Program-made: the position numbers and the translations under genes
Part shown: positions 3,469-37,191 of the stretch, piece by piece
How positions within the stretch are numbered: position 1 is the stretch's first letter
Layout: each line of letters opens with the position of its first letter
The notes under the pieces: generated by a model
Databases searched by the model: none
Told to the model about the DNA's origin: nothing
What the model saw: the letters and a program-made list of their open reading frames with translations, nothing else
From: an uncultured Muribaculaceae bacterium
GTDB taxonomy: Bacteria > Bacillota_I > Bacilli_A > RF39 > UBA660
Direction of reading: 5' to 3'
Assembly (NCBI GenBank): GCA_964415015.1
Contig: CAYPXM010000003.1
Coordinates: forward strand, 3,004 to 40,319
DNA: 37,316 bases

Positions 3469-3687
3469 GTGCTAGAAACAATATTATTAGTAGTATCCGT
3501 ATTAATTATTGCTATTGTACTATTACAAAGTAATAAAGCCAGTGATGCTGGTCAAATAATTACTGGTGGTAATGAAGCATTATTTGCTCAAACTAAAGAA
3601 CGTGGTAGTGAATTATTTATTTCACGGGTTACGATGGCTTTAGGGGTAATATTTTTTGTTATATCTTTTATATTATTTATTAAATAA
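3469..3687 (+). CDS. secG: preprotein translocase subunit SecG
   Basis: 72 aa with two TM segments, and an LLQSNKASDAG...GG motif like the SecG LLQ.GKG..G signature. GTG start; the preceding in-frame codon is a stop. The eno...secG...rnr-smpB order matches Bacillus. Confidence 0.8.
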   Translation: MLETILLVVSVLIIAIVLLQSNKASDAGQIITGGNEALFAQTKERGSELFISRVTMALGVIFFVISFILFIK

Positions 3688-3688
3688 T

Positions 3689-3706
3689 AAGCCGTAAGGC
3701 TTTTTT
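3689..3706 (+). terminator. rho-independent terminator after secG
   Basis: AAGCC-GTAA-GGCTT hairpin followed by a T-run. Confidence 0.6.
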
Positions 3707-3708
3707 AT

Positions 3709-3735
3709 TTGCAATTTTTTATTTTATGATATAAT
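3709..3735 (+). promoter_or_regulatory. promoter of the pilin-like gene (extended -10)
   Basis: TTGCAA at 3709-3714 and TGATATAAT with TATAAT at 3730-3735. The spacer is only 15 nt, so the call relies on the extended -10 TG. Confidence 0.5.
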
Positions 3736-3755
3736 CATTATAGTAGGTGAACGAT

Positions 3756-6062
3756 ATGAAGAAGAATAAGGGTTTTACTTTAGTTGAATTATTAGTTACA
3801 ATCGGTATCATTGCAGTTATTGGAGTAGTAATAAGTGTTAATATCGTAGGGGTAGTAAAGAAAAATAATCAACAAGAATATGAAGATTTTAAAAATAAAT
3901 TAACTAAGAGTGCCTGTGCTTTTGCCGATTTAAGTGATACATTAAAAAATTGTACTAATCGCTGCTTAGTAACGGTTCAAGAACTTATTGATGAAGGTTT
4001 ATTAGAAAAAAATATGATTAATCCTAAAACTAAAAAACCTTTAGGACCTCAAGAAACTATTCATGTTTGTCATGAAGATAAAGAAAAAGTTTGCTATTAT
4101 AATGAAGAAAATAATTATGACTTTTATGGTCCGGAAATAACCTATACAAAAAGTATTGGTAAATTAAATATTACTTTAAATGATGAAAGTAATTTAGCGG
4201 GTTATGTAATTTCTACAAGCAATACTAATCCTGGTACATATACAAACATTACCGGTAATACCCATAGTTTTAGTTATAATCCACCTGGACCAGGAACTTA
4301 CTATGTTTACGCGATAGATGAATATAATAATGTTTCTAAGAAAGATATTACCTTAGTAAATAGTGACTTTGATTTAGAAAAACCAAAAATTAAAGTTATC
4401 CTAAATTTAAATATTGCGGTAGTTACTATTACGGATAATTACAATCTAGCTGGTTATTTAATTAGCACTAGTAATCTAGAAAACGTTACTTATAATAATA
4501 TAACTGGTAAAAATGTTGTTGTAACTTATACTATGGCTGGACCAGGAACATTTTATGTATATGCTATAGATCAATTTGGTAATAAAGAAAAAGTACATTT
4601 TATTGCCACTGCAGCTAATTTTGATACCACACCTCCATTAATAAGTGTAAGTCCCGCAACAGCTCAAGCTTCAATAACATTTAACGATCAAAATGGTAGT
4701 GGTCTTGCAGGTATATTGGTTAATAAAGACGTAAATGATCCCGTTAATTATGAAGCTGCTTCGGGTCAAGTGTTAACGAAAAATTTTACTTTTAATGAAA
4801 CAAATACATATTATGCTCATGCGATAGATGTGGCAGGTAATCGTTCAACGAAATCTTTTAGTATCACTATTTGTCCCTATGCTCCAGGTACGACATGGAC
4901 TTTTAATAATCCACCAGAAAATTTAAAAAGCTTTACTTTCCCCTGTACCGGAACTTATAAATTGAAAGCTCAAGCCGGTAAAAGTGGCTCATGGCGATGG
5001 GGTTCTTGGGGAAATCCTGATTCGGTTTTTCCCATTGTCAATGGTTCTTTTGTAACCGGTGATTTTTACTTTTATAAAAATCAAGGAATCTATATCGGGG
5101 TTGGTGGTAATGGTGGAGATGGTTTTTATCAAGAGTATAGTGGATATGCTGAAACTGGAGCAGTAGGATATAATAATCCAAATGGTACTGTTTTAGGTCG
5201 TTCTGGTGGTGGTGGAGCTACTCATTTTACGACTAGTAATACTTTATATAATGGCTCAGATACTGGCTTAGTTTTATCAGCCCAAGGTGGTAATGGTAGT
5301 AATAATGGTGGCCTTGGTGGTGGTACTAATTATATAAAAAGTGTTCATAATGGGTATTCAAGTGTTAATCATAATATCGAAGGTGCCATAGATAGTAATG
5401 GATATGCCCAAATAATTTTTGTTGGTGAAGGTATTCCTTCAGTAAGTTACTGGGAATATGGTTATACAGGTGGAATGCAAACATTTACCGCTCCGAGTAA
5501 GGGAATATATAAATTTGAAGTATGGGGTGCTAAAGGTGGTATGTCATATTATATGGATTTAAGTACCGGAGATTGTTCATATCATGGCATCGACGCATTA
5601 AATGCAACTCTTAATAATAGTTTATATCCTGGCTATGCCCAAGGACAATTTAATCTAAATGCCGGTGAAACAGTTTATATTAATGTCGGTGGTGAAGGTG
5701 GCTCTGGGGTTAAAGTAGCTGATGGTGTTAGTATTTGCGGTGGAGCTACTGGTGGCGGTGGCTATAATGGTGGAATAAGTGGTACTAACTTTGCAAGCGG
5801 CTCTGGTGGTGCTTCAACTGTTGCCTTACAATCAGGTAATTATTCCACTACCTTATATAATTCAGGTAAATTATTAGTTGCATCAAAAGGTGGCATTGGA
5901 ATTAGAACAAATGATTATATTCATCATGACTTAGTAAGTCAAGGTGGTGGAGTTAATTATGTTAATACTAGCCATGCTAAATATGTCGGTGGATCATTAA
6001 TTAATGAAAATGTTACTAATAAAAAAAGTATTATTCGAGTATACTTAATACAAAATACTTAA
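3756..6062 (+). CDS. modular type IV pilin/pseudopilin-like protein (768 aa): prepilin class-III signal + pilin head + 3 Ig-like repeats + 2 glycine-rich modules
   Basis: ATG at 3756 follows an AGGTGA RBS (the track ORF starts at GTG 3747). The N-terminus MKKNKG|FTLVELLVTIGIIAVIGVV carries the G-F-T-L-x-E prepilin cleavage/methylation motif. Three repeats of about 80 aa end in Y.YAID..GN. Two Gly-rich modules carry GGNGG/GGGG tracts. Confidence 0.85.
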   Translation: MKKNKGFTLVELLVTIGIIAVIGVVISVNIVGVVKKNNQQEYEDFKNKLTKSACAFADLSDTLKNCTNRCLVTVQELIDEGLLEKNMINPKTKKPLGPQETIHVCHEDKEKVCYYNEENNYDFYGPEITYTKSIGKLNITLNDESNLAGYVISTSNTNPGTYTNITGNTHSFSYNPPGPGTYYVYAIDEYNNVSKKDITLVNSDFDLEKPKIKVILNLNIAVVTITDNYNLAGYLISTSNLENVTYNNITGKNVVVTYTMAGPGTFYVYAIDQFGNKEKVHFIATAANFDTTPPLISVSPATAQASITFNDQNGSGLAGILVNKDVNDPVNYEAASGQVLTKNFTFNETNTYYAHAIDVAGNRSTKSFSITICPYAPGTTWTFNNPPENLKSFTFPCTGTYKLKAQAGKSGSWRWGSWGNPDSVFPIVNGSFVTGDFYFYKNQGIYIGVGGNGGDGFYQEYSGYAETGAVGYNNPNGTVLGRSGGGGATHFTTSNTLYNGSDTGLVLSAQGGNGSNNGGLGGGTNYIKSVHNGYSSVNHNIEGAIDSNGYAQIIFVGEGIPSVSYWEYGYTGGMQTFTAPSKGIYKFEVWGAKGGMSYYMDLSTGDCSYHGIDALNATLNNSLYPGYAQGQFNLNAGETVYINVGGEGGSGVKVADGVSICGGATGGGGYNGGISGTNFASGSGGASTVALQSGNYSTTLYNSGKLLVASKGGIGIRTNDYIHHDLVSQGGGVNYVNTSHAKYVGGSLINENVTNKKSIIRVYLIQNT

Positions 6063-6080
6063 GGGATTATTCCCTTTTTT
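6061..6080 (+). terminator. rho-independent terminator after the pilin-like gene
   Basis: AAGGGA-TTAT-TCCCTT hairpin followed by a T-run. Confidence 0.7.
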
Positions 6081-6179: not shown

Positions 6180-8288
6180 ATGAAAGAAAGAATAATAGAA
6201 GCACTTAATAGTTTAACGGAACCAATTGATTTTATGGAATTATATCATTTGATCCATTTGGAGCATACTGATGAAATAAATGAACTTCAAGATGCTTTAA
6301 ACAATTTGTGTGATGAGTATATTGTTTATAAAACTAAAAAAGATAAATATATGTTAATGAAAAATAATCCGGGATTAAAAGTCGGGAAATTAACCTTAAA
6401 TAAAAAAGGATTTGGATTTATAATTTTACCAGAAGAAGAAGATTTATATATTGATAAAAAAAACTTAGGTAATGCTACTCATGATGATATTGTATTATGT
6501 GAAGTAATAAAAGTAGGTTTAAAGAAGGAAGGCCGTGTCTTAAAAGTAGTTAAACGAGATTTAAAACAAATAGTCGGAGAAGTATATTTTTATAATAATA
6601 AATGTTACTTAAAACTAGATGAAGAAAAACTTGATTTAATGATTGAAATAGATAATGATACTGGCTTAGTAGCTGGACATAAAGTACTAGTTAAAATTAT
6701 AAAAGAATTGGCCAAAAAGAAGTATCTAGGTCATGTAATTAAAGTAATTGGTCATAAAGATGATCCTGGTGTTGATATAAAAAGTATTGCCTATAAATAT
6801 GGAATATTAGATTACTTTAACGATAATGTAATCGAAGAATTAAAAAATATACCTGATGAAGTAAATGAACTTGATTTAGTTAATCGTCGTAATTTAACAA
6901 ATGATATTATTTTTACTATTGATGGTGATGATACCAAGGATATTGATGATGCTATTTCTTTAACTCGAGAAAATGATAATTACATATTGGGTGTTCATAT
7001 AGCGGATGTTTCTAATTACGTTTTAGAAAATACTGCCCTAGGTGATGCTGCTTATAAAAGGGGTACTTCTTCTTATTTAACTGACACTGTTATTCCAATG
7101 ATTCCTCATCAATTAAGTAATGGGATATGCTCACTAAATGAAAAAGTCATACGGCTTACTATGTCTTGTGTAATGACAATTAATAAAGCGGGAAAAGTAA
7201 TAAGTTATGATATTTTTCCAAGTTATATTAAAAGTGTTAAAAAAATGACTTATAATTGTGTTAATGATATCATTGTACGAAATAAAATTACTCCTGGTTA
7301 TGAACCATATGTTGATATATTAAAACAAATGAAAGAACTAGCCGATATTTTAAGAAATGAAAAGATTAGCCGAGGATACATTGATTTTGATTTAGATGAA
7401 GTAAAAATAAAACAAGATAAAGAAGGTATATGTATTGGTGTCGAAAGACGTCTACGAGAAGCTGGAGAAATGTTAATTGAAGACTTTATGATTGCAGCTA
7501 ATGAAACTGTTGCAAGTCATATATTTAATATGAATTTACCTTTTTTATATCGAATTCATGCTAATCCAAATACAGAAAAAATTGAAGATTTTACTAATTT
7601 AGTAAAACTCCTTGGTTATCAATTAAAAACAAAAACAAGTGAGATTACTCCAATAACTATGCAAAAGATATTAGATGAATTAAAAGATAAAAAGGAATTT
7701 GAAATTTTATCAAGTATGCTACTTCGTAGTATGAAAAAAGCAGAATATAGTAAGGATAATATTGGACATTTTGGTCTTGCAAGTAAATATTATACTCACT
7801 TTACTTCACCAATTCGTCGTTATCCTGACCTGACTGTTCATCGATTACTAAAAAAATATTTAATTGAAAATGATATGAGTATGACAACTATCAATTTCTT
7901 AGAAAGCCATTTGGTAGAAGTGGCTAGTCATTCTAGTGAACGAGAAGTAGCTGCAGTAAATGCAGAACGTGATGTTGATGATATGAAAATGGCCGAATAC
8001 ATGTCATTTCATGTAGGCGAAGAGTTTGATGGAATTATCTCTTCGGTTACTAGTTTTGGGCTTTTTGTTGAATTAGATAATATGATTGAAGGATTAGTTC
8101 ATATAAGTACTTTAAAAGGCGATTATTTTAATTATATTCCCGATTTACTTAGTTTAGTGGGTAAATCAACGAAAAAGACATATCGGATTGGGGCTAAGGT
8201 TCATATCAAATGTGTAGCGGCTAATAAGGATACGGCAACTATTGATTTTGAAATTTGTGAGGATAAAAATGAGCGAGATAAAAAATAA
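6180..8288 (+). CDS. rnr: ribonuclease R
   Basis: RNB catalytic-region motifs (FTIDGDDTKDIDDAIS, HFGLAS..YTHFTSPIRRYPDL) and a C-terminal S1 domain (GEEFDGIISSVTSFGLFVEL). ATG at 6180 follows an AAGGA RBS (the track ORF starts at TTG 6126). Confidence 0.93.
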   Translation: MKERIIEALNSLTEPIDFMELYHLIHLEHTDEINELQDALNNLCDEYIVYKTKKDKYMLMKNNPGLKVGKLTLNKKGFGFIILPEEEDLYIDKKNLGNATHDDIVLCEVIKVGLKKEGRVLKVVKRDLKQIVGEVYFYNNKCYLKLDEEKLDLMIEIDNDTGLVAGHKVLVKIIKELAKKKYLGHVIKVIGHKDDPGVDIKSIAYKYGILDYFNDNVIEELKNIPDEVNELDLVNRRNLTNDIIFTIDGDDTKDIDDAISLTRENDNYILGVHIADVSNYVLENTALGDAAYKRGTSSYLTDTVIPMIPHQLSNGICSLNEKVIRLTMSCVMTINKAGKVISYDIFPSYIKSVKKMTYNCVNDIIVRNKITPGYEPYVDILKQMKELADILRNEKISRGYIDFDLDEVKIKQDKEGICIGVERRLREAGEMLIEDFMIAANETVASHIFNMNLPFLYRIHANPNTEKIEDFTNLVKLLGYQLKTKTSEITPITMQKILDELKDKKEFEILSSMLLRSMKKAEYSKDNIGHFGLASKYYTHFTSPIRRYPDLTVHRLLKKYLIENDMSMTTINFLESHLVEVASHSSEREVAAVNAERDVDDMKMAEYMSFHVGEEFDGIISSVTSFGLFVELDNMIEGLVHISTLKGDYFNYIPDLLSLVGKSTKKTYRIGAKVHIKCVAANKDTATIDFEICEDKNERDKK

Positions 8289-8691
8289 AAAGGCTTATTT
8301 TGATTATTTCATTGAAAAAGAAATAGAAGCTGGAATCGAATTATTAGGAACAGAAATTAAAAGTATCAGAAATGGAAATTGTAATATCACCGATGGGTAT
8401 ATTATTATTAGAAATAATGAAGCATATATCTTAAATATGTTTATCGATACATATTTTGAAGGTAATCAATTTAATCATGATGAACGTCGTACCAGAAAAC
8501 TATTACTTCATAAAAAAGAAATCCTTAAGTTAAAAATGGAAGTTGATCGTGATGGTTATAGTTTAGTTCCCTTAAAAGTTTATCTCACTCGCAATAAAGC
8601 TAAAGTTTTAATTGGTTTAGCAAAAGGTAAAAAATTATATGATAAACGAAGAACGATTAAAGAAAAAGATATAGCACGAGAAAATCGATAA
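8269..8691 (+). CDS. smpB: SsrA-binding protein SmpB
   Basis: MSEIKNKKAYFDYFIEKEIEAGIELLGTEIKSIR... is a typical SmpB N-terminus. ATG at 8269 overlaps the rnr 3' end (the track ORF starts at 8242). Confidence 0.93.
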   Translation: MSEIKNKKAYFDYFIEKEIEAGIELLGTEIKSIRNGNCNITDGYIIIRNNEAYILNMFIDTYFEGNQFNHDERRTRKLLLHKKEILKLKMEVDRDGYSLVPLKVYLTRNKAKVLIGLAKGKKLYDKRRTIKEKDIARENR

Positions 8692-10968: not shown

Positions 10969-12948
10969 ATGCGTCGAGAAGATTTTTTTGAAAAAATAGA
11001 ATTATTAGTTAAAATGACTGGGGCTAAAATGGCTAATGGGGAAAACCTAATAGCAGAATTAGACGAAATTAAGGATGAGTTATCTGTTATAAAAGCAGAA
11101 AAAAAAGCCTTGAAAGCGGAGATGAATGAAGACCGTTATTTTGACGCTGCAGCAGAAATAGTTGATCGTAACCTAGTAATTGGTTTAAAAAAACAAATCA
11201 ATCGCATAAAAGAGGAAATTGAAGCAACTAATAATATACTAAATGAAAGTATTAAAGCTGAAGAACAATTAAATGTTGAATTATTCAGTGTAGAAAATGC
11301 CCTTAATAATGATAATAATTACATAAATAGTTTAGAACAAAGAATTAATAAATTAAGTAAGAGTGGAGAAAGTGAAGATTTTAATCATTATAATGATTCA
11401 CTTAGTATCGCTAAAGAAAACTATAAAGAAGAAAAAGATAAAGTTAATGAGTTAAATAAACAATATAAAGAAGTTTTAGAAACTATTGATCAGAAGACTA
11501 CTTTAGTTGAATCATTAAAAGAAAAGCTAGAAGATTTAAAACATAAATTAAAAGATATCAATTCTTCATTAGAAAATAAAGATGCTTATGTTAATGTAGA
11601 TTTAAAAGCATTAGATGATAGTAAAATTGCTATTTTTGATGAAAAAATAGACACTTTAGAAGAGAAAAAACTTAAAATAATAAATGATCCTGTATATATG
11701 GCCAATGAAATTAAAGAATCATTAAGCGATGATGATGTTATTGGTGCAATGAAAAAAACCAAAGAATTAATTAAAGTCGTTAGTAAATTGCCATTTATGG
11801 ATGAAGATGATAATGATAAATTAATTGAATTAAAAGCATCTTTAGTAAGTGAAAAAGATGAATTTGTTAAATACATTGAAAATAAACGATATGATGAAAT
11901 AAATACGGAAGTGTTAAGTGATCGAGTTGTTTATTTAAATAACGTTATAAGTACTATTAATGAAGAAATTGATCTTATATGTAAAAAAATAGCTCGTGTT
12001 GATAATGGTGGCTCTAACATGGCTACATTACTTAAAAAAGCAACTAATGATAAAGAAGCAATCGAAACTGACATAACTTTATATGAAAATATTTTAAGTA
12101 CTGAAGAACATATGCCAATCCGTCGTCGTAATGCTATTACGACAATACTAACTAAGAAAAATGATCAATTAAAAGCGATAAATAAAATAATTGAAGCATA
12201 TAAAACAGAAGAATTTCAATATTTAGAAGAGATATATAACTTAGAAAATAGTGACTTAGCGTTATTAAAAGCTAAAATACAAGTAATTGAAGACGAAAAA
12301 GAGAGTATTAATAAAGTAATTAGTAACTTAAAAAGTAAAAATAAAGATGTTTTAGCTGAAGAAAGCGATAAAGAAGTATTAAAGGAATTTGATGAAAAAA
12401 TAAAAGCCATTGATACGCGCTTAGAATTTAGTGAATCATTATCTAGTATTAAAAATGATATTGAACAATATTTTGGTGAACAAGCTGATTTAAATGAAGT
12501 TGTATTAGATACCATAGAAGAAAAAAAAGAGCCAGTTGAAGAAGATAATAAAGAAGCAAATGAAATAGTCTTTAAATCAATCGATGATATTTTAACTGCT
12601 AATGATGATTTAGTTAAAGAAGAAACAATAACTAAAGAAGAAGAAACTCCTGAATTAGAATTTGTTGATTTTGATGATGATAAGTTCTTAGAAATACCAG
12701 AATCAAACGTTGTTAAACTTGATGATATCTTGGAAAGTACAAGTAATTTTGAACCTTTATATGATAATATTGAAGAAGTAAAACCATTATTTGAAAAAGA
12801 ACCAACTGATTATCAATTTGAATCTGTAACCAGCTTTAATCTTCCACAATTTGAATTTCCAAATAATTTAGAAGAAGATCCTGAATTATTAGAAGTTATA
12901 GAAGTAACACCGATTATTGTTGAAGATAAAAATGGAGAAGGTGAATAA
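10969..12948 (+). CDS. large coiled-coil protein with an acidic C-terminal tail, hypothetical
   Basis: 659 aa, heptad-like and rich in K, E, L, I and N throughout. The last ~150 aa are strongly acidic (E/D-rich). GGGTG RBS. Confidence 0.75.
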   Translation: MRREDFFEKIELLVKMTGAKMANGENLIAELDEIKDELSVIKAEKKALKAEMNEDRYFDAAAEIVDRNLVIGLKKQINRIKEEIEATNNILNESIKAEEQLNVELFSVENALNNDNNYINSLEQRINKLSKSGESEDFNHYNDSLSIAKENYKEEKDKVNELNKQYKEVLETIDQKTTLVESLKEKLEDLKHKLKDINSSLENKDAYVNVDLKALDDSKIAIFDEKIDTLEEKKLKIINDPVYMANEIKESLSDDDVIGAMKKTKELIKVVSKLPFMDEDDNDKLIELKASLVSEKDEFVKYIENKRYDEINTEVLSDRVVYLNNVISTINEEIDLICKKIARVDNGGSNMATLLKKATNDKEAIETDITLYENILSTEEHMPIRRRNAITTILTKKNDQLKAINKIIEAYKTEEFQYLEEIYNLENSDLALLKAKIQVIEDEKESINKVISNLKSKNKDVLAEESDKEVLKEFDEKIKAIDTRLEFSESLSSIKNDIEQYFGEQADLNEVVLDTIEEKKEPVEEDNKEANEIVFKSIDDILTANDDLVKEETITKEEETPELEFVDFDDDKFLEIPESNVVKLDDILESTSNFEPLYDNIEEVKPLFEKEPTDYQFESVTSFNLPQFEFPNNLEEDPELLEVIEVTPIIVEDKNGEGE

Positions 12949-19998: not shown

Positions 19999-21528
19999 AT
20001 GAAAAAGAGTGAATTATTAGCATTACTAAAGTTATTTGATGAAAACAGTGTTATAAAACTTTTTTATGAATATTGTTTTAATAAAAAATTAACTTATAAA
20101 GAACTAGAGAGTATTAGTTCAGAGAAATTAATGAATATATTAAAAAGTGAAGAACCAACAATGGAATTACAAAGATATGTTATGTTGGAATTAAATGATG
20201 GATTACTTCCAAAAGAAATATATGATTTATTGGAAAGCTTTGAAAAAATAGACGATGTAACATATTATATTGCATATAATAAGGAACATCAAAAAAGACC
20301 AAATATATTAAAAGAGTTAGAGTTAATAAATCAAGGATTAAAATTTCCTATAAACGCATATTGGGTTATTGATGCTATTCTTTCGTTAACTAATGAAAAT
20401 AATATTATAAAGATATTGACTTCTGTACCAGACAATAAGCGTTTAGGGTCTTTATATAAAATATTTGATGCTAAAGCTAATCATCAACATACCGTTAAAA
20501 CACATGAAAATGAGTTTACAAATATAGGTATTGCTTTAATGAGTACTGATGATTGTAGTTTATATTATGATGTATTGATTAATATAGTATCTTTAGAAGA
20601 ATTACCGGAAGCATTTAAAAAAGTGGATAATGCACTAAAAAAGACAGATATAGTATCAAGCAGTATATATGATATTACTCGACTATTTAATTATGTAGTT
20701 GTTAAAAATATTATGGATTATAATCAAGCTATTTTATTTATTGATGATATAAACAAAATATTAAATAATTTTGAAAAAAGTAATAAACTAAAACGTGATT
20801 GTTTAATGAGATGTATTAGTTCTTCTGGTAAATACGATATTGAACTAATAAATCAAATTATGAATAGCGATAATGTATTAAAATTAGAATTATTTTATAA
20901 TTATTCAGATAAGTATAGAGACGAAAAATTTTCAAAAGATAAACTTAAATATATTCTTTCTTTAGAAGATTCATCATTCATCCTTTCAAAAATATCTCGT
21001 GATGTTTTTTTTCTAGAAAAATTACCACTTGATTTGTTTAAAAAAATAATTGTTCGAGAAGATTATGATAGTGTACTTGATTTATATTTAGAAATGCAAT
21101 ATGAATCCTGGAATATCCCTTTAAATGAATATTTAATTGAACATGGGGATTTGTATAACATCTTAAAAAAATTATCTAAAAAATCAATGACTATAAAGGA
21201 ATATCAAAAAATATTATCTTATAGTGGTAAAAACATTCAATTAGAAGATATAAAAGCATATTCCCTAGAAAATATTGATAAAGAAATATATGCAATTTTA
21301 TATACATATGATGTAATTATTAGTGATGATTATAAATATATGTATATTAAAGAAGATATTAAAATTGTTGATGATCCTAGTTATCGAATGGAATCACTAG
21401 AAAATATTTCTATTCCTAATTGTATGGAATACTATGACATGATTAACAGAATCAACATTAGCGATATTACTGATGATGAAGAAATAGATTTTACTAAAAA
21501 GTTAATACCGGTTAAAAAGCAAAATTAA
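19999..21528 (+). CDS. hypothetical protein (509 aa, predicted all-helical, cytoplasmic)
   Basis: Long ORF with an AGGAGG RBS, its own terminator (stem AAAGCAAAA/TTTTGCTTT at 21516-21543), no signal peptide or TM, and no recognisable motif. Confidence 0.75.
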   Translation: MKKSELLALLKLFDENSVIKLFYEYCFNKKLTYKELESISSEKLMNILKSEEPTMELQRYVMLELNDGLLPKEIYDLLESFEKIDDVTYYIAYNKEHQKRPNILKELELINQGLKFPINAYWVIDAILSLTNENNIIKILTSVPDNKRLGSLYKIFDAKANHQHTVKTHENEFTNIGIALMSTDDCSLYYDVLINIVSLEELPEAFKKVDNALKKTDIVSSSIYDITRLFNYVVVKNIMDYNQAILFIDDINKILNNFEKSNKLKRDCLMRCISSSGKYDIELINQIMNSDNVLKLELFYNYSDKYRDEKFSKDKLKYILSLEDSSFILSKISRDVFFLEKLPLDLFKKIIVREDYDSVLDLYLEMQYESWNIPLNEYLIEHGDLYNILKKLSKKSMTIKEYQKILSYSGKNIQLEDIKAYSLENIDKEIYAILYTYDVIISDDYKYMYIKEDIKIVDDPSYRMESLENISIPNCMEYYDMINRINISDITDDEEIDFTKKLIPVKKQN

Positions 21529-25280: not shown

Positions 25281-26717
25281 TTAATTTGTAACTGTTCTTG
25301 TTTTACCAGTTTTTACCCAACCACTTAAAGTAGTTTGAGAATTCCATGTATATGTAATAGTTAAAGTACATTTAGTCCATTTCTTTGCTTTAACAATTTC
25401 ATCATTATTAGTTTTATAACAATATTCACCATTTAAAGCAAATCCAGTAGGACAAGTATATCCAATAAATTCTTTATTTTGTGCTTTAGTGCAAGTATTA
25501 TTACTCTTATTATAAGTATAACTTGAATCACTACAATAGAAAGTATCATCAGTCTTAACTGTTTTATAACATATCATTGAAGCACCACTACCAGAAGAAA
25601 GGTATCCAGTTGGACAACTATATACTTTAGCAGTACTATATGATGGAGTACCATATTCAGTACTTGATGTATAACATGTTGAACCACCATTATTACTTCC
25701 ACCGTTAGGACAGTCATATGTAGTTACTATATTTCTTTTATATATACGATAAGTATAAGTAATAACTATACCAGGACAATTAGATGAACTAGTACATACA
25801 TATTTACTAGATGAACCAGTTAATTCATACTTAGTAGTATCATTACCAGTTAATCCTCTTGTAGATGATGTAGATCCAGCACCATACCATGCTCCATAAC
25901 CTTTACTACTACGAGCAGGATATGAACCATTAACATTTTTAGCACAACTATTATTTACATCTCCACCATTAGGACAACTTACAGTAGTAGCGCCATTACT
26001 TTCAATAACCGCAGCATATTCAGTTTTAGTATCACCAACAACTCGAACTGGAGTCATAGTAAGTACTTTACTTTCTGAATATTGTTTTGTGGCATTAATC
26101 TTAGTATCTTCAGTATATTTAACACAGTTAGTTCCTACTAATGAATAACCAGCCTCACAAATATAACTAGTATCTTTAATAACTCTTTCTTTCTTATATT
26201 GATATTGAACATAACTAGTTTGTTTTGTAGTTGTTTCTTCCTTCTTAGTTGTTTCTTCTTTTTTAGTAGTACTTTTCTTATCAGTAGTACAAACGCAATT
26301 ATTATTTGTACATACATTATAACATCCAATTGTATCTAAGATAAAATCAGACTCATTACCACAAGTTAAATCAATTCGTAATTGATATTCTTGATCAGTA
26401 ATTTTAGTTACTTTTACATAACTTTTATTTACATCACAAGCTTTATTATCTAAATCTTTTAATTCTCTTATAATATTTTTTTCAATCATCTCACGAAGAG
26501 TCATACTAGTAGAATCACCAATATTTTTTGGTAAACGATCTACGGTATAATAACTCTTAGCGGCATTTTGAAAACTATTAAAGTTATCACCAAAATTAGA
26601 ATTATTTGAAATGTTTTTATTTGGCATTGGAAATATCCATACTAGTACAAGTACAAATACAAAAATGGTAAGTGCACTAATAGCTAATTTTAACCAATTA
26701 ATTCTTTTTGTTTCCAT
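25281..26717 (-). CDS. membrane-anchored, cysteine-module-rich surface protein, hypothetical (478 aa)
   Basis: N-terminal TM anchor (WLKLAISALTIFVFVLVLVWIF), a juxtamembrane two-Cys domain, a TKKEET-repeat linker, then at least 7 short two-Cys modules such as YSCPTGYLSSGSGASMICYKT and YTCPTGFALNGEYCYKT. AGGGGGA RBS. Confidence 0.8.
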   Translation of the reverse strand: METKRINWLKLAISALTIFVFVLVLVWIFPMPNKNISNNSNFGDNFNSFQNAAKSYYTVDRLPKNIGDSTSMTLREMIEKNIIRELKDLDNKACDVNKSYVKVTKITDQEYQLRIDLTCGNESDFILDTIGCYNVCTNNNCVCTTDKKSTTKKEETTKKEETTTKQTSYVQYQYKKERVIKDTSYICEAGYSLVGTNCVKYTEDTKINATKQYSESKVLTMTPVRVVGDTKTEYAAVIESNGATTVSCPNGGDVNNSCAKNVNGSYPARSSKGYGAWYGAGSTSSTRGLTGNDTTKYELTGSSSKYVCTSSSNCPGIVITYTYRIYKRNIVTTYDCPNGGSNNGGSTCYTSSTEYGTPSYSTAKVYSCPTGYLSSGSGASMICYKTVKTDDTFYCSDSSYTYNKSNNTCTKAQNKEFIGYTCPTGFALNGEYCYKTNNDEIVKAKKWTKCTLTITYTWNSQTTLSGWVKTGKTRTVTN

Positions 26718-26738: not shown

Positions 26739-28124
26739 CTACTTAACAATGGTATAAGAAATACCATCTTCATCAGTATATATTCCTGTATCAGCATCAT
26801 AGATTCCAGATTGTTTTTGTGTGACTATAGCATTAGCATCTATTACAGCTCCATTTAAGTAACCTGATAACATATTTAATTCGGTTTCACAAATTGGATC
26901 ATTTAATTCTGCAAATAATTTATCAATAGTATAATTATGATTAACACTAGTAGTAGTTCCATCTTCACTAACAATCGAAACAGTATTTGTTATTTTCATC
27001 TTTGGTGCAATAATATTAGCAAGTGGTTCCATAGCTGATAATTTAATAATATATAATACTCTTTCAGCGGAAGAATTATATTGAGTAAATAAGGAATGTT
27101 TTTCATTATTTACTAATACATCGTCAATTCTAGTTGCAGTAGTTGAATAGTTTTTTTCTTCAACAACCAAATTATTTAAAGCATATATATATTCTTTAGC
27201 ACCTTCATAACGAATCGTTTCGTTATCACTAAGTAATTTATCTTGAATAGCGTCTAAATATTCTAATTCTTCTTTAGCAACAGTATCTTCAACTAATAAA
27301 CTAGAAGTTTCAAAGTTTCCAATATCATAACCAGCTGTATTTTCAATTCCCATTAAATTATTAATTTGAGTAATTTCTTTATTTACTTCAGCATTAACGA
27401 TAGTTGAAACATATGTGTTTGCTTCATCAAATGTTATTGATTTATCATTACTACGATTAAAGAATTTCATCATATCAATTAATTCTTCTTTGGTAATATC
27501 CATTTCACCAGTATTTATTAATTCAGCTTGTTGATTGATTAAATCATTGATATTAATTGAGGCAATTTCTTCGACATCAATTACTTCTAATTCAATATCT
27601 TCACTTACTGGAGTAATACCATCTTCATCATTTATATGTGGAGTAATAATATTATTTTTACCACAACCTTTAAGCAAGGTTATCGCTAATAAAGATAGAG
27701 CACATATTGCAGATACTCCTGTAAAAATTAATAATCCGTTTAAAATAATTTCTTTCTTATCAGATTTATTATCAGTTTCTTCTTGGTTGTCATTATTAAT
27801 CTCATCAGTATTAATGCTAATAAATTCTTTACATTCTTCATCGTTAATTATTTCAAGTATTAACTTACCATACTCATCATTTAATGCATTAAATGTTGCA
27901 TCATCAATTGAATTATTATTAATATCATTAATATCTTTATCACAATTTTTTACAAAAATATTAAATAATTTAACATCATTAATTAAATTAGTATTATCAA
28001 TGTTATTAATAATGTTATTAGTAATAATTTTAGAATCCTTATCAATTTTTTTAAGAACTACTTTCTTAACTGTAGTAATTCTTCCAATTAATATATTTTT
28101 TTCTTCACTTGTAATCTTTTCCAT
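26739..28124 (-). CDS. bitopic membrane protein, hypothetical (461 aa)
   Basis: ATG at 28124 follows an AAGGGGGA RBS (the track ORF extends to 28184). One central TM (LNGLLIFTGVSAICALSLLAITLL) separates a ~145-aa N-terminal region from a ~290-aa acidic C-terminal region. Confidence 0.75.
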   Translation of the reverse strand: MEKITSEEKNILIGRITTVKKVVLKKIDKDSKIITNNIINNIDNTNLINDVKLFNIFVKNCDKDINDINNNSIDDATFNALNDEYGKLILEIINDEECKEFISINTDEINNDNQEETDNKSDKKEIILNGLLIFTGVSAICALSLLAITLLKGCGKNNIITPHINDEDGITPVSEDIELEVIDVEEIASININDLINQQAELINTGEMDITKEELIDMMKFFNRSNDKSITFDEANTYVSTIVNAEVNKEITQINNLMGIENTAGYDIGNFETSSLLVEDTVAKEELEYLDAIQDKLLSDNETIRYEGAKEYIYALNNLVVEEKNYSTTATRIDDVLVNNEKHSLFTQYNSSAERVLYIIKLSAMEPLANIIAPKMKITNTVSIVSEDGTTTSVNHNYTIDKLFAELNDPICETELNMLSGYLNGAVIDANAIVTQKQSGIYDADTGIYTDEDGISYTIVK

Positions 28125-28155
28125 AAAAAATCCCCCTTTTGTGAATATGGGGGTT

Positions 28156-28184
28156 ATTTTATCATAGACATAATAAATTGTCAA
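28156..28184 (-). promoter_or_regulatory. sigma-A-type promoter of the minus-strand two-gene operon
   Basis: On the minus strand: TTGACA, 17-nt spacer, TG-A-TAAAAT. It lies about 30 nt upstream of the 28124 start. Confidence 0.6.
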
Positions 28185-28341: not shown

Positions 28342-28698
28342 GGGGCAGACTTGGTTTCGACAGGGTATTGTTACATATGATGGCAAGTGGTAGAGATACC
28401 TTAAATCTAAATTAAATATAAACGGAGAAAATAATTTTTCTTTCGCTCCATCATTTGCTTAATCTAATTTAAGTAAGGAGCACCTTAATATGTTTATATC
28501 TTTGGGATATATTTAGGATAATAAACAAGGATTATACTATTTGACTGTTTAGAGCCAAATAAAGAATAATATCTAATCTAGTTTATTAATAGGTGTGCCA
28601 GATCCGGTTGATAAATGAATTAATAATTCTGACTAAACTTGTAGAAATTGTATGATGATGTATCTTGGACAGGAGTTCAATTCTCCTCTGCTCCACCA
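28342..28698 (+). ncRNA. ssrA: tmRNA (SsrA)
   Basis: 5' GGGGCAGACTTGGTTTCGACAGGG and a 3' tRNA-like end GGACAGGAGTTCAATTCTCCTCTGCTCCACCA, with acceptor pairing GGGGCAG/CTGCTCC. The internal tag reading frame is GGA...GCT TAA (28424-28462). Confidence 0.93.
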
Positions 28699-29331: not shown

Positions 29332-29425
29332 AACTTTCTTCCTTTTCTGTTACAATTATATCATATTTTTTCTTGATTTATATTTCTTTTTATATTACTA
29401 TACATATTAAATCATGGAGATATGT

Positions 29426-30187
29426 ATGAAAAAAGAAGTAACCAAGGAATTATATTTATATATTAAGGAAATCCTTTTATTAAAAAAAGAAATTAGAATG
29501 TCTTATCATAATTTAAGAAAACAGACCACTGCAGTTGCAAAATGTTTAGATCCAAACCAATTACAGTATAAAAAATATGTTACCTTATTAAAAAGTAATT
29601 TAACCGATTATTATAACTTTGTTGATATTGTTAATACAATATTAACAATTATTCTTCAACATATAACTAAATTTGATGATTATGATGTTGTTGATCGGAT
29701 TTATGGTGAATTAACGGTTTATATTGATAATTATCATAATTTTTGTTTTCTAATACCAGAATATGTTTTAACTACTAGTAAAGATAATGGTTTATTGTAT
29801 CCAAAAATTAAAAATTTTTCCGAAATGAACGATGATACGTACTCCGAATATGTAAATATGATAATGTTTCATACCACAAAAATTGAAGAACATATAAAGT
29901 TATTAATAAAGAATAAAGATATTACTAAAAAACAATGGGATTTCATAAAAAATAATTTAGTAATTGATAATGATTGCCATGAGAAATCGTGGATTGAAGA
30001 TATTTTAGATAACGATGAAGTAGTGGATATTAAAATCCATCTTAATAGTATTCATGACTTGGAAAGTTATGAACTAGGAATGGATTGTTTATTATTAGGA
30101 TTGTTACTAAAAAAAGTGTTAAAAGAATATCAAAATATTAATGAAAAAGTATATATAAAAAAAGAGGATAAAGATAATGGAAATTAA
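29426..30187 (+). CDS. hypothetical helical protein
   Basis: ATG at 29426 follows a GGAGA RBS (the track ORF starts at 29414). No motif recognised. Confidence 0.7.
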   Translation: MKKEVTKELYLYIKEILLLKKEIRMSYHNLRKQTTAVAKCLDPNQLQYKKYVTLLKSNLTDYYNFVDIVNTILTIILQHITKFDDYDVVDRIYGELTVYIDNYHNFCFLIPEYVLTTSKDNGLLYPKIKNFSEMNDDTYSEYVNMIMFHTTKIEEHIKLLIKNKDITKKQWDFIKNNLVIDNDCHEKSWIEDILDNDEVVDIKIHLNSIHDLESYELGMDCLLLGLLLKKVLKEYQNINEKVYIKKEDKDNGN

Positions 30188-31043
30188 AGATACATCGACC
30201 TTTACAACTAAAAAGGAATATATTTATTATTTGTTTGATTTAATTAATTTAGCTAATGCTGATCATAAGTATTATCTTTCTTGCATTAGATCTCTTAATA
30301 AATTTATTGGGATATTTCCTCTAACTGACCTTCAAAATGGCTTAGATGATGTAAAAGATTTAAATGAAGTAATAAAAAATGAACAAAAAGCTGAAGATTA
30401 TATTTGTAGTATATCAGAATTGATTTCTGAAGAAAAAATGTTGTATGAAAATAATTATCAAAATATAGTAAATATTTTTTATGAGATAATCCAAATAATT
30501 GAACGAGGTAATGACTGTAGCCGAACTAATGGTGTAATTGATGATTTAACAAGTCGATATATAAAAACAATATCTATTGCTAGACAAAATATAGCAATTC
30601 TTTATAAAGGTTTAATTGAGTATCAAAAACCGGAATTAATAGGATATGATAATAAGTGTCTATATTTTCAATATTTTGAACAATGTATTGATGAATTATA
30701 TTATATTGATAATCCGTTAGATGATATTTATGATTATTTAATCCAAGAAAAAATATTAACCAAGAAAAAAATTAAATTCTTAAAGAAAAGAATGGAAATA
30801 ATTAAAGATGATGAATTAAAATCAACAAAAATAGAAAGTTATATTAATAATGGCTTGGTAAAAGATTTATTTATTGTTATTCCGAAAATTATTGATGAAA
30901 AAACCTTTAAAAATTGTTTGGAATTATTAGCAGGTGCTAGTTTATACTGTGATTATTTTAAAAAACCGGTAAACGAAGATGAAATCGATAATAAAATTGC
31001 TAAAATAATGATGAACGTTGAGGAAGAATTAAAAATAAAGTAA
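30177..31043 (+). CDS. hypothetical helical protein, possible paralogue of the preceding gene
   Basis: The start overlaps the upstream stop by 11 nt. AGAGGA RBS. Size and composition are similar to the preceding gene, and a similar motif is shared (LTKKKIKFLKKRMEIIKDD versus ITKKQWDFIKNNLVIDND). Confidence 0.7.
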   Translation: MEIKDTSTFTTKKEYIYYLFDLINLANADHKYYLSCIRSLNKFIGIFPLTDLQNGLDDVKDLNEVIKNEQKAEDYICSISELISEEKMLYENNYQNIVNIFYEIIQIIERGNDCSRTNGVIDDLTSRYIKTISIARQNIAILYKGLIEYQKPELIGYDNKCLYFQYFEQCIDELYYIDNPLDDIYDYLIQEKILTKKKIKFLKKRMEIIKDDELKSTKIESYINNGLVKDLFIVIPKIIDEKTFKNCLELLAGASLYCDYFKKPVNEDEIDNKIAKIMMNVEEELKIK

Positions 31044-35724: not shown

Positions 35725-37191
35725 ATGGGAGAATTAATTTTAACTGATCAAGCATTTTTTGATGGTAGTAATTGTGAAGTATCATTAAGTAATTGTGATT
35801 TTGGATTATCATTATATGTTGATAATGATAATCCGTTAGATAAACAACTGTTAAAAACTGAAGAGATGCAAGCTAAAATAGATGAATATATCAGTTTTGG
35901 AGATTTACTAGAAGAAGTTGACAACTTAGAAGTGTATCGAGAATTAAGAAATAACCCAAAAAATTTATGGAATAATGTCTCATACATAAAATTATGTTTT
36001 GAAAATATAGATGAACTAGAATTTATTAAAAATAATAAAAATATCCTTAGTAAAAAAATCGTTATCAATGAGTTTATTGATATTATCGACCTAGATAAAG
36101 TTCTTGCTTTATTAGATAAATTTCATGATTATCGAGATATTATTTATGTTGGGATGGTAAATAATTTTGAATATGTTTCATTAAGTGAGTGCTATCAAAC
36201 GATTATGAAAATAAAAAATATATCTGATTATATTATGAGTAAAAATTTATCACCAGTGGAATTAATAATGTATACATATGATATAGTAAGAAATCGAGTT
36301 TATAAACAAGAAGAAAATGGAGAAAAATCAACTAAATCAAGGGACTTAAGCGGTGCTTTATCTGGCCGAGATATCGTATGCGTTGGTTATGCTAATATTT
36401 TAGAAGCGATATTAAAATACTGTAACATTACTTCCTTTTGTGCCGGTCTTACCGATAAGAATAATGAAATTAGTGGGCATGAAAGAAATATTATTTATGT
36501 TAAGGATGATAAATATAATATCGATGGTGTTTATTATTTTGATACTACTTGGGATAGTAAAACTATGGGAGATGAAAACGAATATTTAAATGGCTATTTA
36601 TGTTTTGCTAAAACTCGCTTAGAAATGGAAACATACGAAAAACGACAATTTATTTATGATGAATGTCCTTATTACTTTCTTGATTTACCGAATAAAATTA
36701 AAGAATTACTAGATCATAATGAGTTAGAAAAATGTTATGAATTGTATTATAAATCAATAAAATATATGACTAGAATAATTGGTAAAAAAATCATTGATTC
36801 TGAGTATTTTTTTCCGATATTACCAAAATATAATCAATTTGATCATGATAAGTTTGTAAATGACGTTTTAGAAGTTATCGATTATTTTAATCGTCCATTA
36901 TCAGCTGAAACATATTTATTAATCCTAAATAATGTCCGAAAAATCGAGTATTATGATGACCCGGATACTTATTTATATGATTTTAATACTATGTTCAAAA
37001 TATGTATCCAATCAGATTGGAAGTTTAAAAATGATCATTTATCAAAAGAACAACAAATAATGAAATATCTATTTAATCAGGATATAAAACAAACATTTAT
37101 TAATTATGTTAGACAAGAAGAATTACCTAGGGAAATACTTGAGACAAGATTAACTAAAGTATTACTAAATATTAGAAATAAAAAGAGTTAA
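35725..37191 (+). CDS. cytoplasmic protein with a transglutaminase-like (Cys-His-Asp) core, hypothetical
   Basis: RDIVCVGYANILEAILKYCNI...ISGHERNIIYV...GVYYFDTTWD reproduces the C...H...D spacing of the transglutaminase-like papain-fold core. No signal peptide. GGGGA RBS. Confidence 0.65.
   Translation: MGELILTDQAFFDGSNCEVSLSNCDFGLSLYVDNDNPLDKQLLKTEEMQAKIDEYISFGDLLEEVDNLEVYRELRNNPKNLWNNVSYIKLCFENIDELEFIKNNKNILSKKIVINEFIDIIDLDKVLALLDKFHDYRDIIYVGMVNNFEYVSLSECYQTIMKIKNISDYIMSKNLSPVELIMYTYDIVRNRVYKQEENGEKSTKSRDLSGALSGRDIVCVGYANILEAILKYCNITSFCAGLTDKNNEISGHERNIIYVKDDKYNIDGVYYFDTTWDSKTMGDENEYLNGYLCFAKTRLEMETYEKRQFIYDECPYYFLDLPNKIKELLDHNELEKCYELYYKSIKYMTRIIGKKIIDSEYFFPILPKYNQFDHDKFVNDVLEVIDYFNRPLSAETYLLILNNVRKIEYYDDPDTYLYDFNTMFKICIQSDWKFKNDHLSKEQQIMKYLFNQDIKQTFINYVRQEELPREILETRLTKVLLNIRNKKS

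Follow-up and report, generated by a model that had tools for sequence, protein, structure and literature searches.

What kind of protein begins like a type IV prepilin, continues for 768 amino acids and is encoded between secG and rnr, away from any recognizable pilus gene? The question is raised by a stretch of 37,316 nucleotides (contig CAYPXM010000003.1; GC content 27%), referred to here as the window, from an uncultured Muribaculaceae bacterium that GTDB places among the Bacilli_A (RF39, UBA660). The gene runs on the + strand from an ATG at 3756 to a TAA at 6060-6062. A previous interpretation, based on the letters and their translations (the sequence-only reading), had described it as a modular prepilin, i.e., a small pilin module with grafted domains, and the signal, the homology of the head, the predicted structure and the profile matches in the Protein Data Bank (PDB) support this description. 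In the following we argue that its product is probably a minor or tip pilin, processed by a prepilin peptidase, whose stalk and glycine-rich heads would mediate adhesion. The parts of the gene are listed here in the order in which they are discussed.

3756..6062 including the stop, + strand: whole coding sequence of the modular prepilin; an identical protein (P0001), in the same synteny, occurs in two independent Logan assemblies
3756..3773, + strand: leader peptide MKKNKG, amino acids 1-6, with a predicted prepilin-peptidase cut after Gly6; PF07963 and TIGR02532 over cut-off
3774..4130, + strand: pilin module, amino acids 7-125, with Phe+1, Glu+5, a hydrophobic alpha-1N, the alpha-1 helix and a small beta head with Cys 54, 66, 70 and 113
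4131..4376, + strand: beta-sandwich repeat R1, amino acids 126-207; PPC (PF04151) under threshold, E=2.7e-4, 22.2 bits against 25.9
4377..4628, + strand: beta-sandwich repeat R2, amino acids 208-291; OmpL47-type domain NF047446 at 24.2 bits against a cut-off of 40, residues 250-281
4629..4871, + strand: beta-sandwich repeat R3, amino acids 292-372; found by self-comparison with R1 and R2
4872..5435, + strand: first glycine-rich domain (GRD1), amino acids 373-560, a divergent short domain paralogous to the second and modelled at lower confidence
5436..6059, + strand: second glycine-rich domain (GRD2), amino acids 561-768, of ALK/LTK type; PF12810 over cut-off, all significant PDB fold matches to ALK/LTK

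The N-terminus of the product reads MKKNKG/FTLVELLVTIGIIAVIGVV, with FTLVE directly after the predicted cut (slash). As can be seen from MKKNKG/FTLVELLVTIGIIAVIGVVISV, it has the class III pattern of a short basic leader ending in Gly, Phe at +1, Glu at +5 and about 20 hydrophobic residues. Both curated models of this signal are exceeded, PF07963 (N_methyl) with 30.6 bits against a cut-off of 21.2 and TIGR02532 (IV_pilin_GFxxxE) with 23.2 bits against 16.3, which agrees with the prepilin signal proposed in the sequence-only reading. Residues G6, F7, T8, L9 and E11 are invariant in the alignment of pilin modules (A2), and G-1, F+1 and E+5 are conserved to at least 90% in the alignment of pilins that carry glycine-rich domains (GRDs). 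Within a six-frame translation of the window the motif is unique to this gene, the product of which would be cleaved after Gly6.

The resemblance extends well beyond the signal. An exhaustive phmmer search against 1.84 billion representative proteins returned 1,126 matches at E<=1e-3. Among them, dozens of stand-alone proteins 110-135 amino acids long can be aligned over their whole length with residues 1 to about 117, at 35-45% identity, which supports the small pilin-like head noted in the sequence-only reading. All of the small homologues inspected begin with the same class III signal and keep four cysteines, and they are presumably assembled pilins. Among the head cysteines of the window protein (54, 66, 70, 105 and 113), only 54, 66, 70 and 113 are conserved family-wide; a search with the head alone gave 5 matches, on short contigs. 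The sequence-only reading had named a predicted structure lacking the alpha-1 helix and head as an outcome that would speak against it. Both are present in the AlphaFold2 model of residues 1-123 computed from the alignment of these homologues (mean predicted local distance difference test score, pLDDT, 82.8), which consists of a 49-residue helix (9-57) and strands at 69-73, 101-107 and 110-115, and the predicted arrangement of head and alpha-1 corresponds to the pilin 'lollipop'. A sequence-profile search of the PDB with the pilin module gave 21 matches; 18 of these, with the 17 best among them, belong to type IV pilins or pseudopilins, for example Geobacter PilA-N, Streptococcus sanguinis PilE1 (8pfb), Thermus PilA, MshA, Myxococcus xanthus PilA, GspG, PpdD and Neisseria PilE.

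Alternatively, the protein could belong to a competence pilus of the ComG type, as one of its minor pseudopilins, and would then serve DNA uptake and not adhesion. The lineage belongs to the monoderm-type Bacilli, comG operons are kept in the related Erysipelotrichales (PMC12786226), and weak NCBIfam matches to four ComG models are indeed found. However, all of these equivalog scores are far under their cut-offs (ComGE 21.5 versus 49, ComGD 18.1 versus 70, ComGC 14.9 versus 75, ComGF 14.9 versus 80) and are restricted to the N-terminal helix. The TIGRFAM models for pseudopilins of the type II secretion system (T2SS) stay under their cut-offs as well (GspH 16.7 versus 80, GspG 13.2 versus 88.85, GspJ 12.4 versus 64.85), and the protein is therefore filed under neither system. 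Moreover, the gene lies outside any comG operon, no DNA-binding domain was detected in its product, and its cargo resembles in fold the domains of receptors that bind ligands and of phage fibres. A role in competence is thus highly unlikely.

Behind the pilin module, self-comparison resolves three repeats of about 82 amino acids (R1/R2 43% identity, E=2e-22; R1/R3 32%, E=8e-10; R2/R3 E=1.5e-7). In the alignment of the repeat family, 7 of 14 units match NF047446 (best E=4e-8), and the family profile matches the ColH protein chain 3jqw (6e-5). From these profiles the repeats are predicted to be OmpL47-type or PPC-like beta-sandwiches, so that of the three Ig-like repeats described before, the repeats themselves are real and the HYR type is not supported. 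Units of the same type also occur in giant surface proteins bearing ordinary signal peptides, and they may therefore be regarded as a generic stalk or spacer.

The C-terminal half of the protein consists of the two large glycine-rich modules noted previously, which are paralogous (29% identity over 182 amino acids, E=9e-15 by self-comparison). GRD2 matches PF12810 with 39.6 to 44.4 bits (cut-off 24.5), and GRD1, for which Pfam gave no match of its own, is assigned to the same family because of its paralogy to GRD2. The sequence-only reading had not recognized the cargo combination; the cargo can now be named as the ALK/LTK glycine-rich domain PF12810, and its combination with a pilin module recurs in many proteins from gut metagenome-assembled genomes (MAGs). 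In the AlphaFold model of residues 365-768 the mean pLDDT is 79.9, with most of GRD2 at about 88-97. When this model was compared with the PDB using Foldseek, 21 matches were obtained at E<=1.3e-4 with probability 1.00, 21/21 of them to ALK, LTK or SCD-2, and the next match had a probability of 0.07. By sequence, the best match in the PDB is SCD-2, the ALK homologue of Caenorhabditis elegans (E=1.9e-4), which is aligned at the motif of the opening strand.

The same fold is found on viruses. Among predicted viral structures (BFVD) there are 62 matches to the GRD fold at E<=1e-3, including a cyanophage short tail fibre, a tail-collar protein and mycobacteriophage minor tail proteins, and GRD2 is matched by PHROG families 5811, 7388 and 1589, all without annotated function. 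The recurrence of the fold on viral tail proteins fits a recognition or adhesion head. Many of the phage and giant-virus proteins with this fold are automatically named 'receptor protein-tyrosine kinase', although several are tail-fibre or minor tail proteins; the naming looks like an artefact inherited from the PF12810/ALK annotation. The open-access literature on bacterial GRDs yielded nothing useful.

The combination of a pilin module with glycine-rich cargo is not confined to this gene. Modular pilins were defined by Raynaud et al. (2021) as proteins with an N-terminal IPR012902 motif and one or more additional domains that have no specific tie to pilus biology, and 1,219 such proteins in 264 architectures were described (PMC8179133). 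Dataset S1 of that study lists IPR012902-PF12810 in 2 proteins and IPR012902-PF12810 x3 in 1 protein, and Dataset S2 one PilY1 carrying PF12810 (PMC8179133). With PF07963 and PF12810 on one polypeptide, the window protein falls within this definition, and both the concept and the domain combination are already catalogued, the latter as supplementary-table lines only. Among many others, P0004, P0005, P0008, P0011, P0017, P0050, P0051, P0055, P0073, P0078 and P0079 have one or two GRDs in addition to a class III signal; their middle region varies, with Flg_new repeats in some and OmpL47-type units in others. Of 37 non-redundant proteins with a GRD that were retrieved, at least 23 start with a class III signal; the sample was seeded with a class III query and is hence biased toward such proteins. 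A very abundant gut family of 504 amino acids (P0034), for which the index of the contig collection lists 535 blocks, carries one GRD behind the signal MKKEDKNG/FFLSE, in which Glu+5 is kept; this signal variant is missed by the Pfam N_methyl model. A contig from a Hadza gut sample (L003, 10001-16837) holds three tandem GRD paralogues of 799, 871 and 507 amino acids with Flg_new repeats, the third of which (507 amino acids) matches a second glycine-rich family, PF21722 (Gly_rich_2).

The place of the gene provides a second line of argument. The genes that define it, together with smpB and ssrA, are the following.

3469..3687, + strand: secG, left edge of the slot; PF03840 (SecG) on the identical gene in L001/L002; product 82% identical over 40 amino acids to that of relative L039
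6126..8288, + strand: rnr (RNase R), right edge of the slot, with a likely true start at ATG 6180; OB_RNB, RNB and S1 on the identical L001 gene (702 amino acids there)
8242..8691, + strand: smpB, overlapping the end of rnr; PF01668 on L001; 64% identical to L039 smpB
28342..28698, + strand: tmRNA gene ssrA, tag peptide GENNFSFAPSFA, about 20 kb downstream of smpB

In Bacillales, the slot between secG and rnr is occupied by the esterase gene yvaK/fphH, in a cluster secG-yvaK-rnr-smpB-ssrA (PMC10644348). The sequence-only reading had placed the prepilin gene where yvaK sits, which is right as to position; what the slot holds in relatives is, however, a stand-alone pilin, and this is more telling than yvaK. 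The reading had also referred to the B. subtilis cluster, in which ssrA follows smpB; in the window, ssrA is not adjacent to smpB but some 20 kb away. The nearest genomes among the matches listed are MAGs of uncultured gut Bacilli, Tenericutes, Mollicutes and Clostridium sp. CAG:524 from human, rabbit, mouse and ruminant samples. One of these, L039 (MAG MGBC163973, CAJUQG01), has engB, secG, a 124-amino-acid stand-alone pilin, rnr and smpB in this order, with rnr 64%, smpB 64% and secG 82% identical to the window genes; the stop of its pilin gene overlaps the start of rnr, whereas in the window a weak terminator lies between the two. A 118-amino-acid pilin (P0089) precedes rnr in L010, and in L014 a single gene separates secG from a 121-amino-acid pilin downstream. 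Over their full length, these slot pilins are 33-38% identical to the window module (E = 1e-20 to 1e-29). Judged from gene order, the secG-rnr slot thus appears normally to hold a small pilin in this clade of low-GC, small-genome gut Bacilli, and the bare pilins of about 120 amino acids identify the window gene as a cargo-extended version of the slot pilin.

The GRD cargo is not what is conserved at this place. A general role of secG-rnr as the site of GRD-pilins was considered and rejected, as other representatives lie elsewhere, namely between nusG and rplK (P0073), between rnj and ftsY (P0055) and beside a T2SSE gene and rpsU (P0034); it is therefore the pilin, and not its glycine-rich cargo, that is conserved between secG and rnr. 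A candidate arrangement rnr-smpB-[GRD pilin] in L098 was likewise discarded, as tblastn gave no rnr or smpB match there. Elsewhere in the relatives, large class III genes interrupt strings of translation genes that are otherwise highly conserved, as in L039 (2783-6933; fusA-tuf-[745 amino acids]-[634 amino acids]), L096 (6406-10359; secE-nusG-[661 amino acids][632 amino acids]-rplK) and L095 (10001-11860; rnj-[413 amino acids][179 amino acids]-ftsY).

The gene appears to be at home in this genome. Its GC content is 33% compared to 27% for the window, and recent horizontal acquisition was considered on this ground; the idea was rejected, since the GC content at third codon positions (0.151) is within the range of the neighbours (0.09-0.18), which marks the gene as native, and the excess is located in codon positions 1-2, where it is explained by Gly- and Thr-rich codons. 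The signals that may govern its expression are as follows.

3689..3702, + strand: terminator-like hairpin after secG, 5-bp stem and T-run; -6.4 kcal/mol, z = -1.74; weak
3708..3735, + strand: promoter-like site with -35 TTTGCA (3708-3713), 16-nucleotide spacer and extended -10 TATAAT (3730-3735); 10/12 consensus matches
3745..3750, + strand: Shine-Dalgarno-like AGGTGA, 5 nucleotides 5' of ATG 3756, read off the sequence
6061..6076, + strand: terminator-like hairpin after the prepilin gene, 6-bp stem followed by a T-run; -7.6 kcal/mol, z = -1.97; weak

Because of the AGGTGA at 3745-3750, the start at ATG 3756 is preferred over an upstream GTG at 3747. The -10 element is flagged as extended by a TG, which can be read at 3727-3728. 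Consensus-like sites are thus present, as had been claimed for an own promoter and terminator, but the hairpins are weak and promoter-like sites are not enriched, with 17 found in the region and 18.6 expected from shuffles. The promoter call accordingly denotes a putative site, a consensus match only, and read-through from the prepilin gene into rnr may occur. With both flanking hairpins short and weak and promoter-like sites without excess, a monocistronic gene is therefore plausible.

A good ribosome-binding site and a strong-looking extended -10 promoter speak for another reading, in which the product would be the major subunit of the filament, so that cargo on every subunit would give a bottle-brush-like structure. 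The gene also occupies the same place as the 118-124-amino-acid pilins of relatives and is the sole class III gene in 37 kb. Type IV filaments rise by about 1 nm per subunit, however, and some 640 cargo residues per subunit are hard to fit into such a rise. In addition, the characterized modular pilins PilB and PilC of S. sanguinis are minor pilins and are predicted to be located at the tip (PMC8179133). We consider a major subunit very unlikely.

A minor or tip pilin depends on assembly machinery, none of which is encoded nearby. As the sequence-only reading had stated, the window holds no prepilin peptidase, assembly ATPase or platform gene: a Pfam scan of its ten open reading frames (ORFs) without evident function found no T2SSE, T2SSF or Peptidase_A24, and the remaining ORFs read as housekeeping genes from their translations, partly confirmed by Pfam labels on L001/L002. 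In the relatives, such genes are found in various arrangements. In an Acholeplasmatales MAG (L071), genes for an A24 peptidase, T2SSF and T2SSE occur together with pilin genes. A Bacillales MAG (L066) encodes an A24 peptidase immediately before a class III protein of 533 amino acids, and in Clostridium sp. CAG:524 (L037) T2SSE is divergent from a pilin. The GRD gene of the abundant P0034 family (L093/L094, 8461-11515) adjoins, in divergent orientation, a T2SSE ATPase of PilB type, and other N_methyl genes are scattered there among housekeeping genes. Most pilin genes of the nearest relatives are orphans without adjacent machinery. As the genes for pilins and for their machinery are dispersed between housekeeping genes in this clade, a stretch of 37 kb lacking machinery is the norm there and says little about the genome. 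A 'Walker PilB-like' ORF on L055 was rejected as PilB, being a conjugative coupling protein (T4SS-DNA_transf).

Taken as a minor or tip pilin, the protein might act in the following manner. The precursor would be inserted into the membrane via its hydrophobic alpha-1N, and a prepilin peptidase of the PilD/ComC type, encoded elsewhere in the genome, would cut after Gly6 and methylate Phe+1. The alpha-1 helix (about 9-57), with Glu+5, would then dock the subunit into a type IV filament made by a PilB/PilC-type machine. The subunit would be of low abundance and, because of its bulk, most likely located at the tip. There the three OmpL47-type repeats would form a stalk, and the two TNF-like/glycine-rich domains of ALK/LTK type a head that would bind a ligand and thereby confer adhesion.

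Several observations weigh against this proposal. Foldseek retrieved nothing significant from the PDB for the model of the pilin module (best E=1.4), a null that is treated as uninformative given the long helix and tiny sheet, so that membership of the pilin fold rests on topology and sequence profiles; the PDB profile matches of the module, in turn, span mainly alpha-1. As for the cargo, the match of GRD2 to PF12810 covers profile positions 6-134 of 243 only, i.e., the first half, and the Foldseek alignments to ALK/LTK have TM-scores of 0.19-0.30 and root mean square deviations of 8-13 A, which therefore denotes a resemblance at the family level and not a close one. At about 640 residues this cargo is large for a filament subunit, and the relatives have numerous class III proteins of up to 1582 amino acids, beyond typical minor-pilin sets. 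To these points the lack of machinery genes in the window has to be added, as well as the fact that no GRD-bearing pilin has been studied experimentally.

The Foldseek null, and the shortness of the N_methyl motif, could be taken to mean that the protein is no pilin at all, but an ordinary Sec-exported or transmembrane-anchored surface protein with a chance resemblance at its N-terminus. Such a coincidence would have to account for two independent curated models that are exceeded, for a whole module of 117 amino acids homologous to small pilins with E-values down to 1e-29, and for a bare pilin as the same-slot gene of relatives, and it is exceedingly unlikely.

A more serious question is posed by the size and number of the class III proteins, namely whether the protein is displayed on the surface without any filament. 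The class III N-terminus would then be a membrane anchor or export signal only, processed or not, and the pilin module a general carrier of adhesins. The many very large class III proteins fit filament-free display equally well: proteins of 573, 745, 784, 1011, 1240, 1343 and 1582 amino acids are encoded among housekeeping genes of relatives. The orphan state of most pilin genes in the nearest relatives, the bulky cargo and the lack of machinery in the window point the same way, as does the occurrence of GRD and beta-sandwich modules behind ordinary signal peptides or transmembrane anchors. There is also an archaeal precedent for class III signals on proteins that do not form filaments, namely the sugar-binding proteins of the Sulfolobus bindosome (PMC3047682). 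The bindosome itself, however, needs an assembly system resembling that of type IV pili. Glu+5 and the full alpha-1/head module, which are conserved with stand-alone pilins, would be needless for a mere anchor, and both the pairing of the P0034 GRD-pilin with a T2SSE ATPase in an abundant relative and the A24 peptidase immediately 5' of the class III gene in L066 count against such display. Display without a filament is thus an unlikely explanation, albeit one to be taken seriously, and we retain the minor or tip pilin as the preferred one.

A broader and rather doubtful extension of these ideas concerns the clade as a whole. The pilin module could be the general carrier of a large, fast-diversifying set of adhesins, with class III proteins ranging from 400 to over 1,500 amino acids inserted into housekeeping strings (secG-rnr, nusG-rplK, tuf) and the GRD as a receptor-binding head, its fold being the one with which ALK/LTK receptors of metazoans bind cytokines and which is also present on phage tail fibres. 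The linkage of the pilin gene to rnr might then tie the expression of pili or adhesins to the RNase R/SmpB stress module.

Several further ORFs of the window are worth recording. Two adjacent ORFs of about 480 amino acids on the - strand (25281-26717 and 26739-28184) have no Pfam match. The first of them combines an N-terminal transmembrane anchor with a linker of KKEETT type and with Cys-rich repeats of the form CP[NT]G, and its product is thus probably located on the surface; it was considered as a second, degenerate pilin and rejected (hhalign probability 4.8% against the pilin head), and the comparison of its Cys-rich part with the Cys-rich tail of pilin P0076 was not significant (E=0.067). 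On the + strand, a highly acidic, coiled-coil-like ORF of 659 amino acids (10969-12948) has a weak TMF_TATA_bd match only and is conserved in two Logan contigs. Several + strand ORFs of 250-510 amino acids without Pfam match (29414-31043, 19999-21528 and 35725-37191), located among tRNA-synthetase and transporter genes, are lineage-specific unknowns.

The closest known counterparts of the window protein are the modular pilins of Raynaud et al. (2021), with which it shares a class III signal and a small pilin module followed by domains foreign to pilus biology. S. sanguinis PilB carries a vWA module and PilC a lectin module, whereas the window protein carries two short GRDs behind three beta-sandwich spacers; the former are encoded in a pil operon, the latter alone between secG and rnr. 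Processing and filament incorporation have been shown for PilB and PilC, while for the window protein we infer both. The slot pilins of L039 (124 amino acids), L010 (P0089, 118) and L014 (121) have the same module, the conserved Cys pattern and a place by rnr and/or secG, but they stop after the head, where the window protein runs about 640 residues further. With the carboxylesterase YvaK/FphH only the secG-rnr position is held in common; the proteins are unrelated, and Pfam detected no esterase domain in the window protein.

With regard to the cargo, both the profile match and the fold matches lead to the TNF-like and glycine-rich 'TG' domain of ALK/LTK (PF12810; 7nx1, 7nx4, 7lrz, 7lir), and SCD-2 shares with the window GRD the opening motif 'F.y.G..q.ftvP..G.Y..e.wGA.GG'. 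The window GRDs are, however, short (about 190-208 amino acids) and stand as a tandem pair on a bacterial pilin, in contrast to the ectodomain of a metazoan receptor kinase. The phage proteins with a GRD, such as the short tail fibre of Synechococcus phage S-RSM4, the tail-collar protein of S-WAM2 and the mycobacteriophage minor tail proteins, likewise carry this fold on a fibre-like structure, but they lack a class III signal and belong to a virion and not to a cell.

The modular-pilin concept is unchanged by these findings. What is new is the conserved secG-[pilin]-rnr slot, occupied by a bare pilin or an extended one, the association of a GRD-pilin with a T2SSE ATPase, and the connection of the GRD fold to phage fibres. 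The slot clearly illustrates how one locus can hold either a bare or a cargo-extended pilin, and it is a small but useful landmark for pilins in poorly annotated MAGs; pilins of uncultured gut clades with reduced genomes are already of applied interest, as in the case of the TANB77 pilin (PMC11680825). If the proposed reading is true, an uncultured gut bacterium with a small genome would show an ALK/LTK-type GRD on a type IV filament, the bacterial GRD family, so far without known function, would gain a testable role as an adhesin, and one fold would join metazoan receptor ectodomains, phage tail fibres and bacterial pili.

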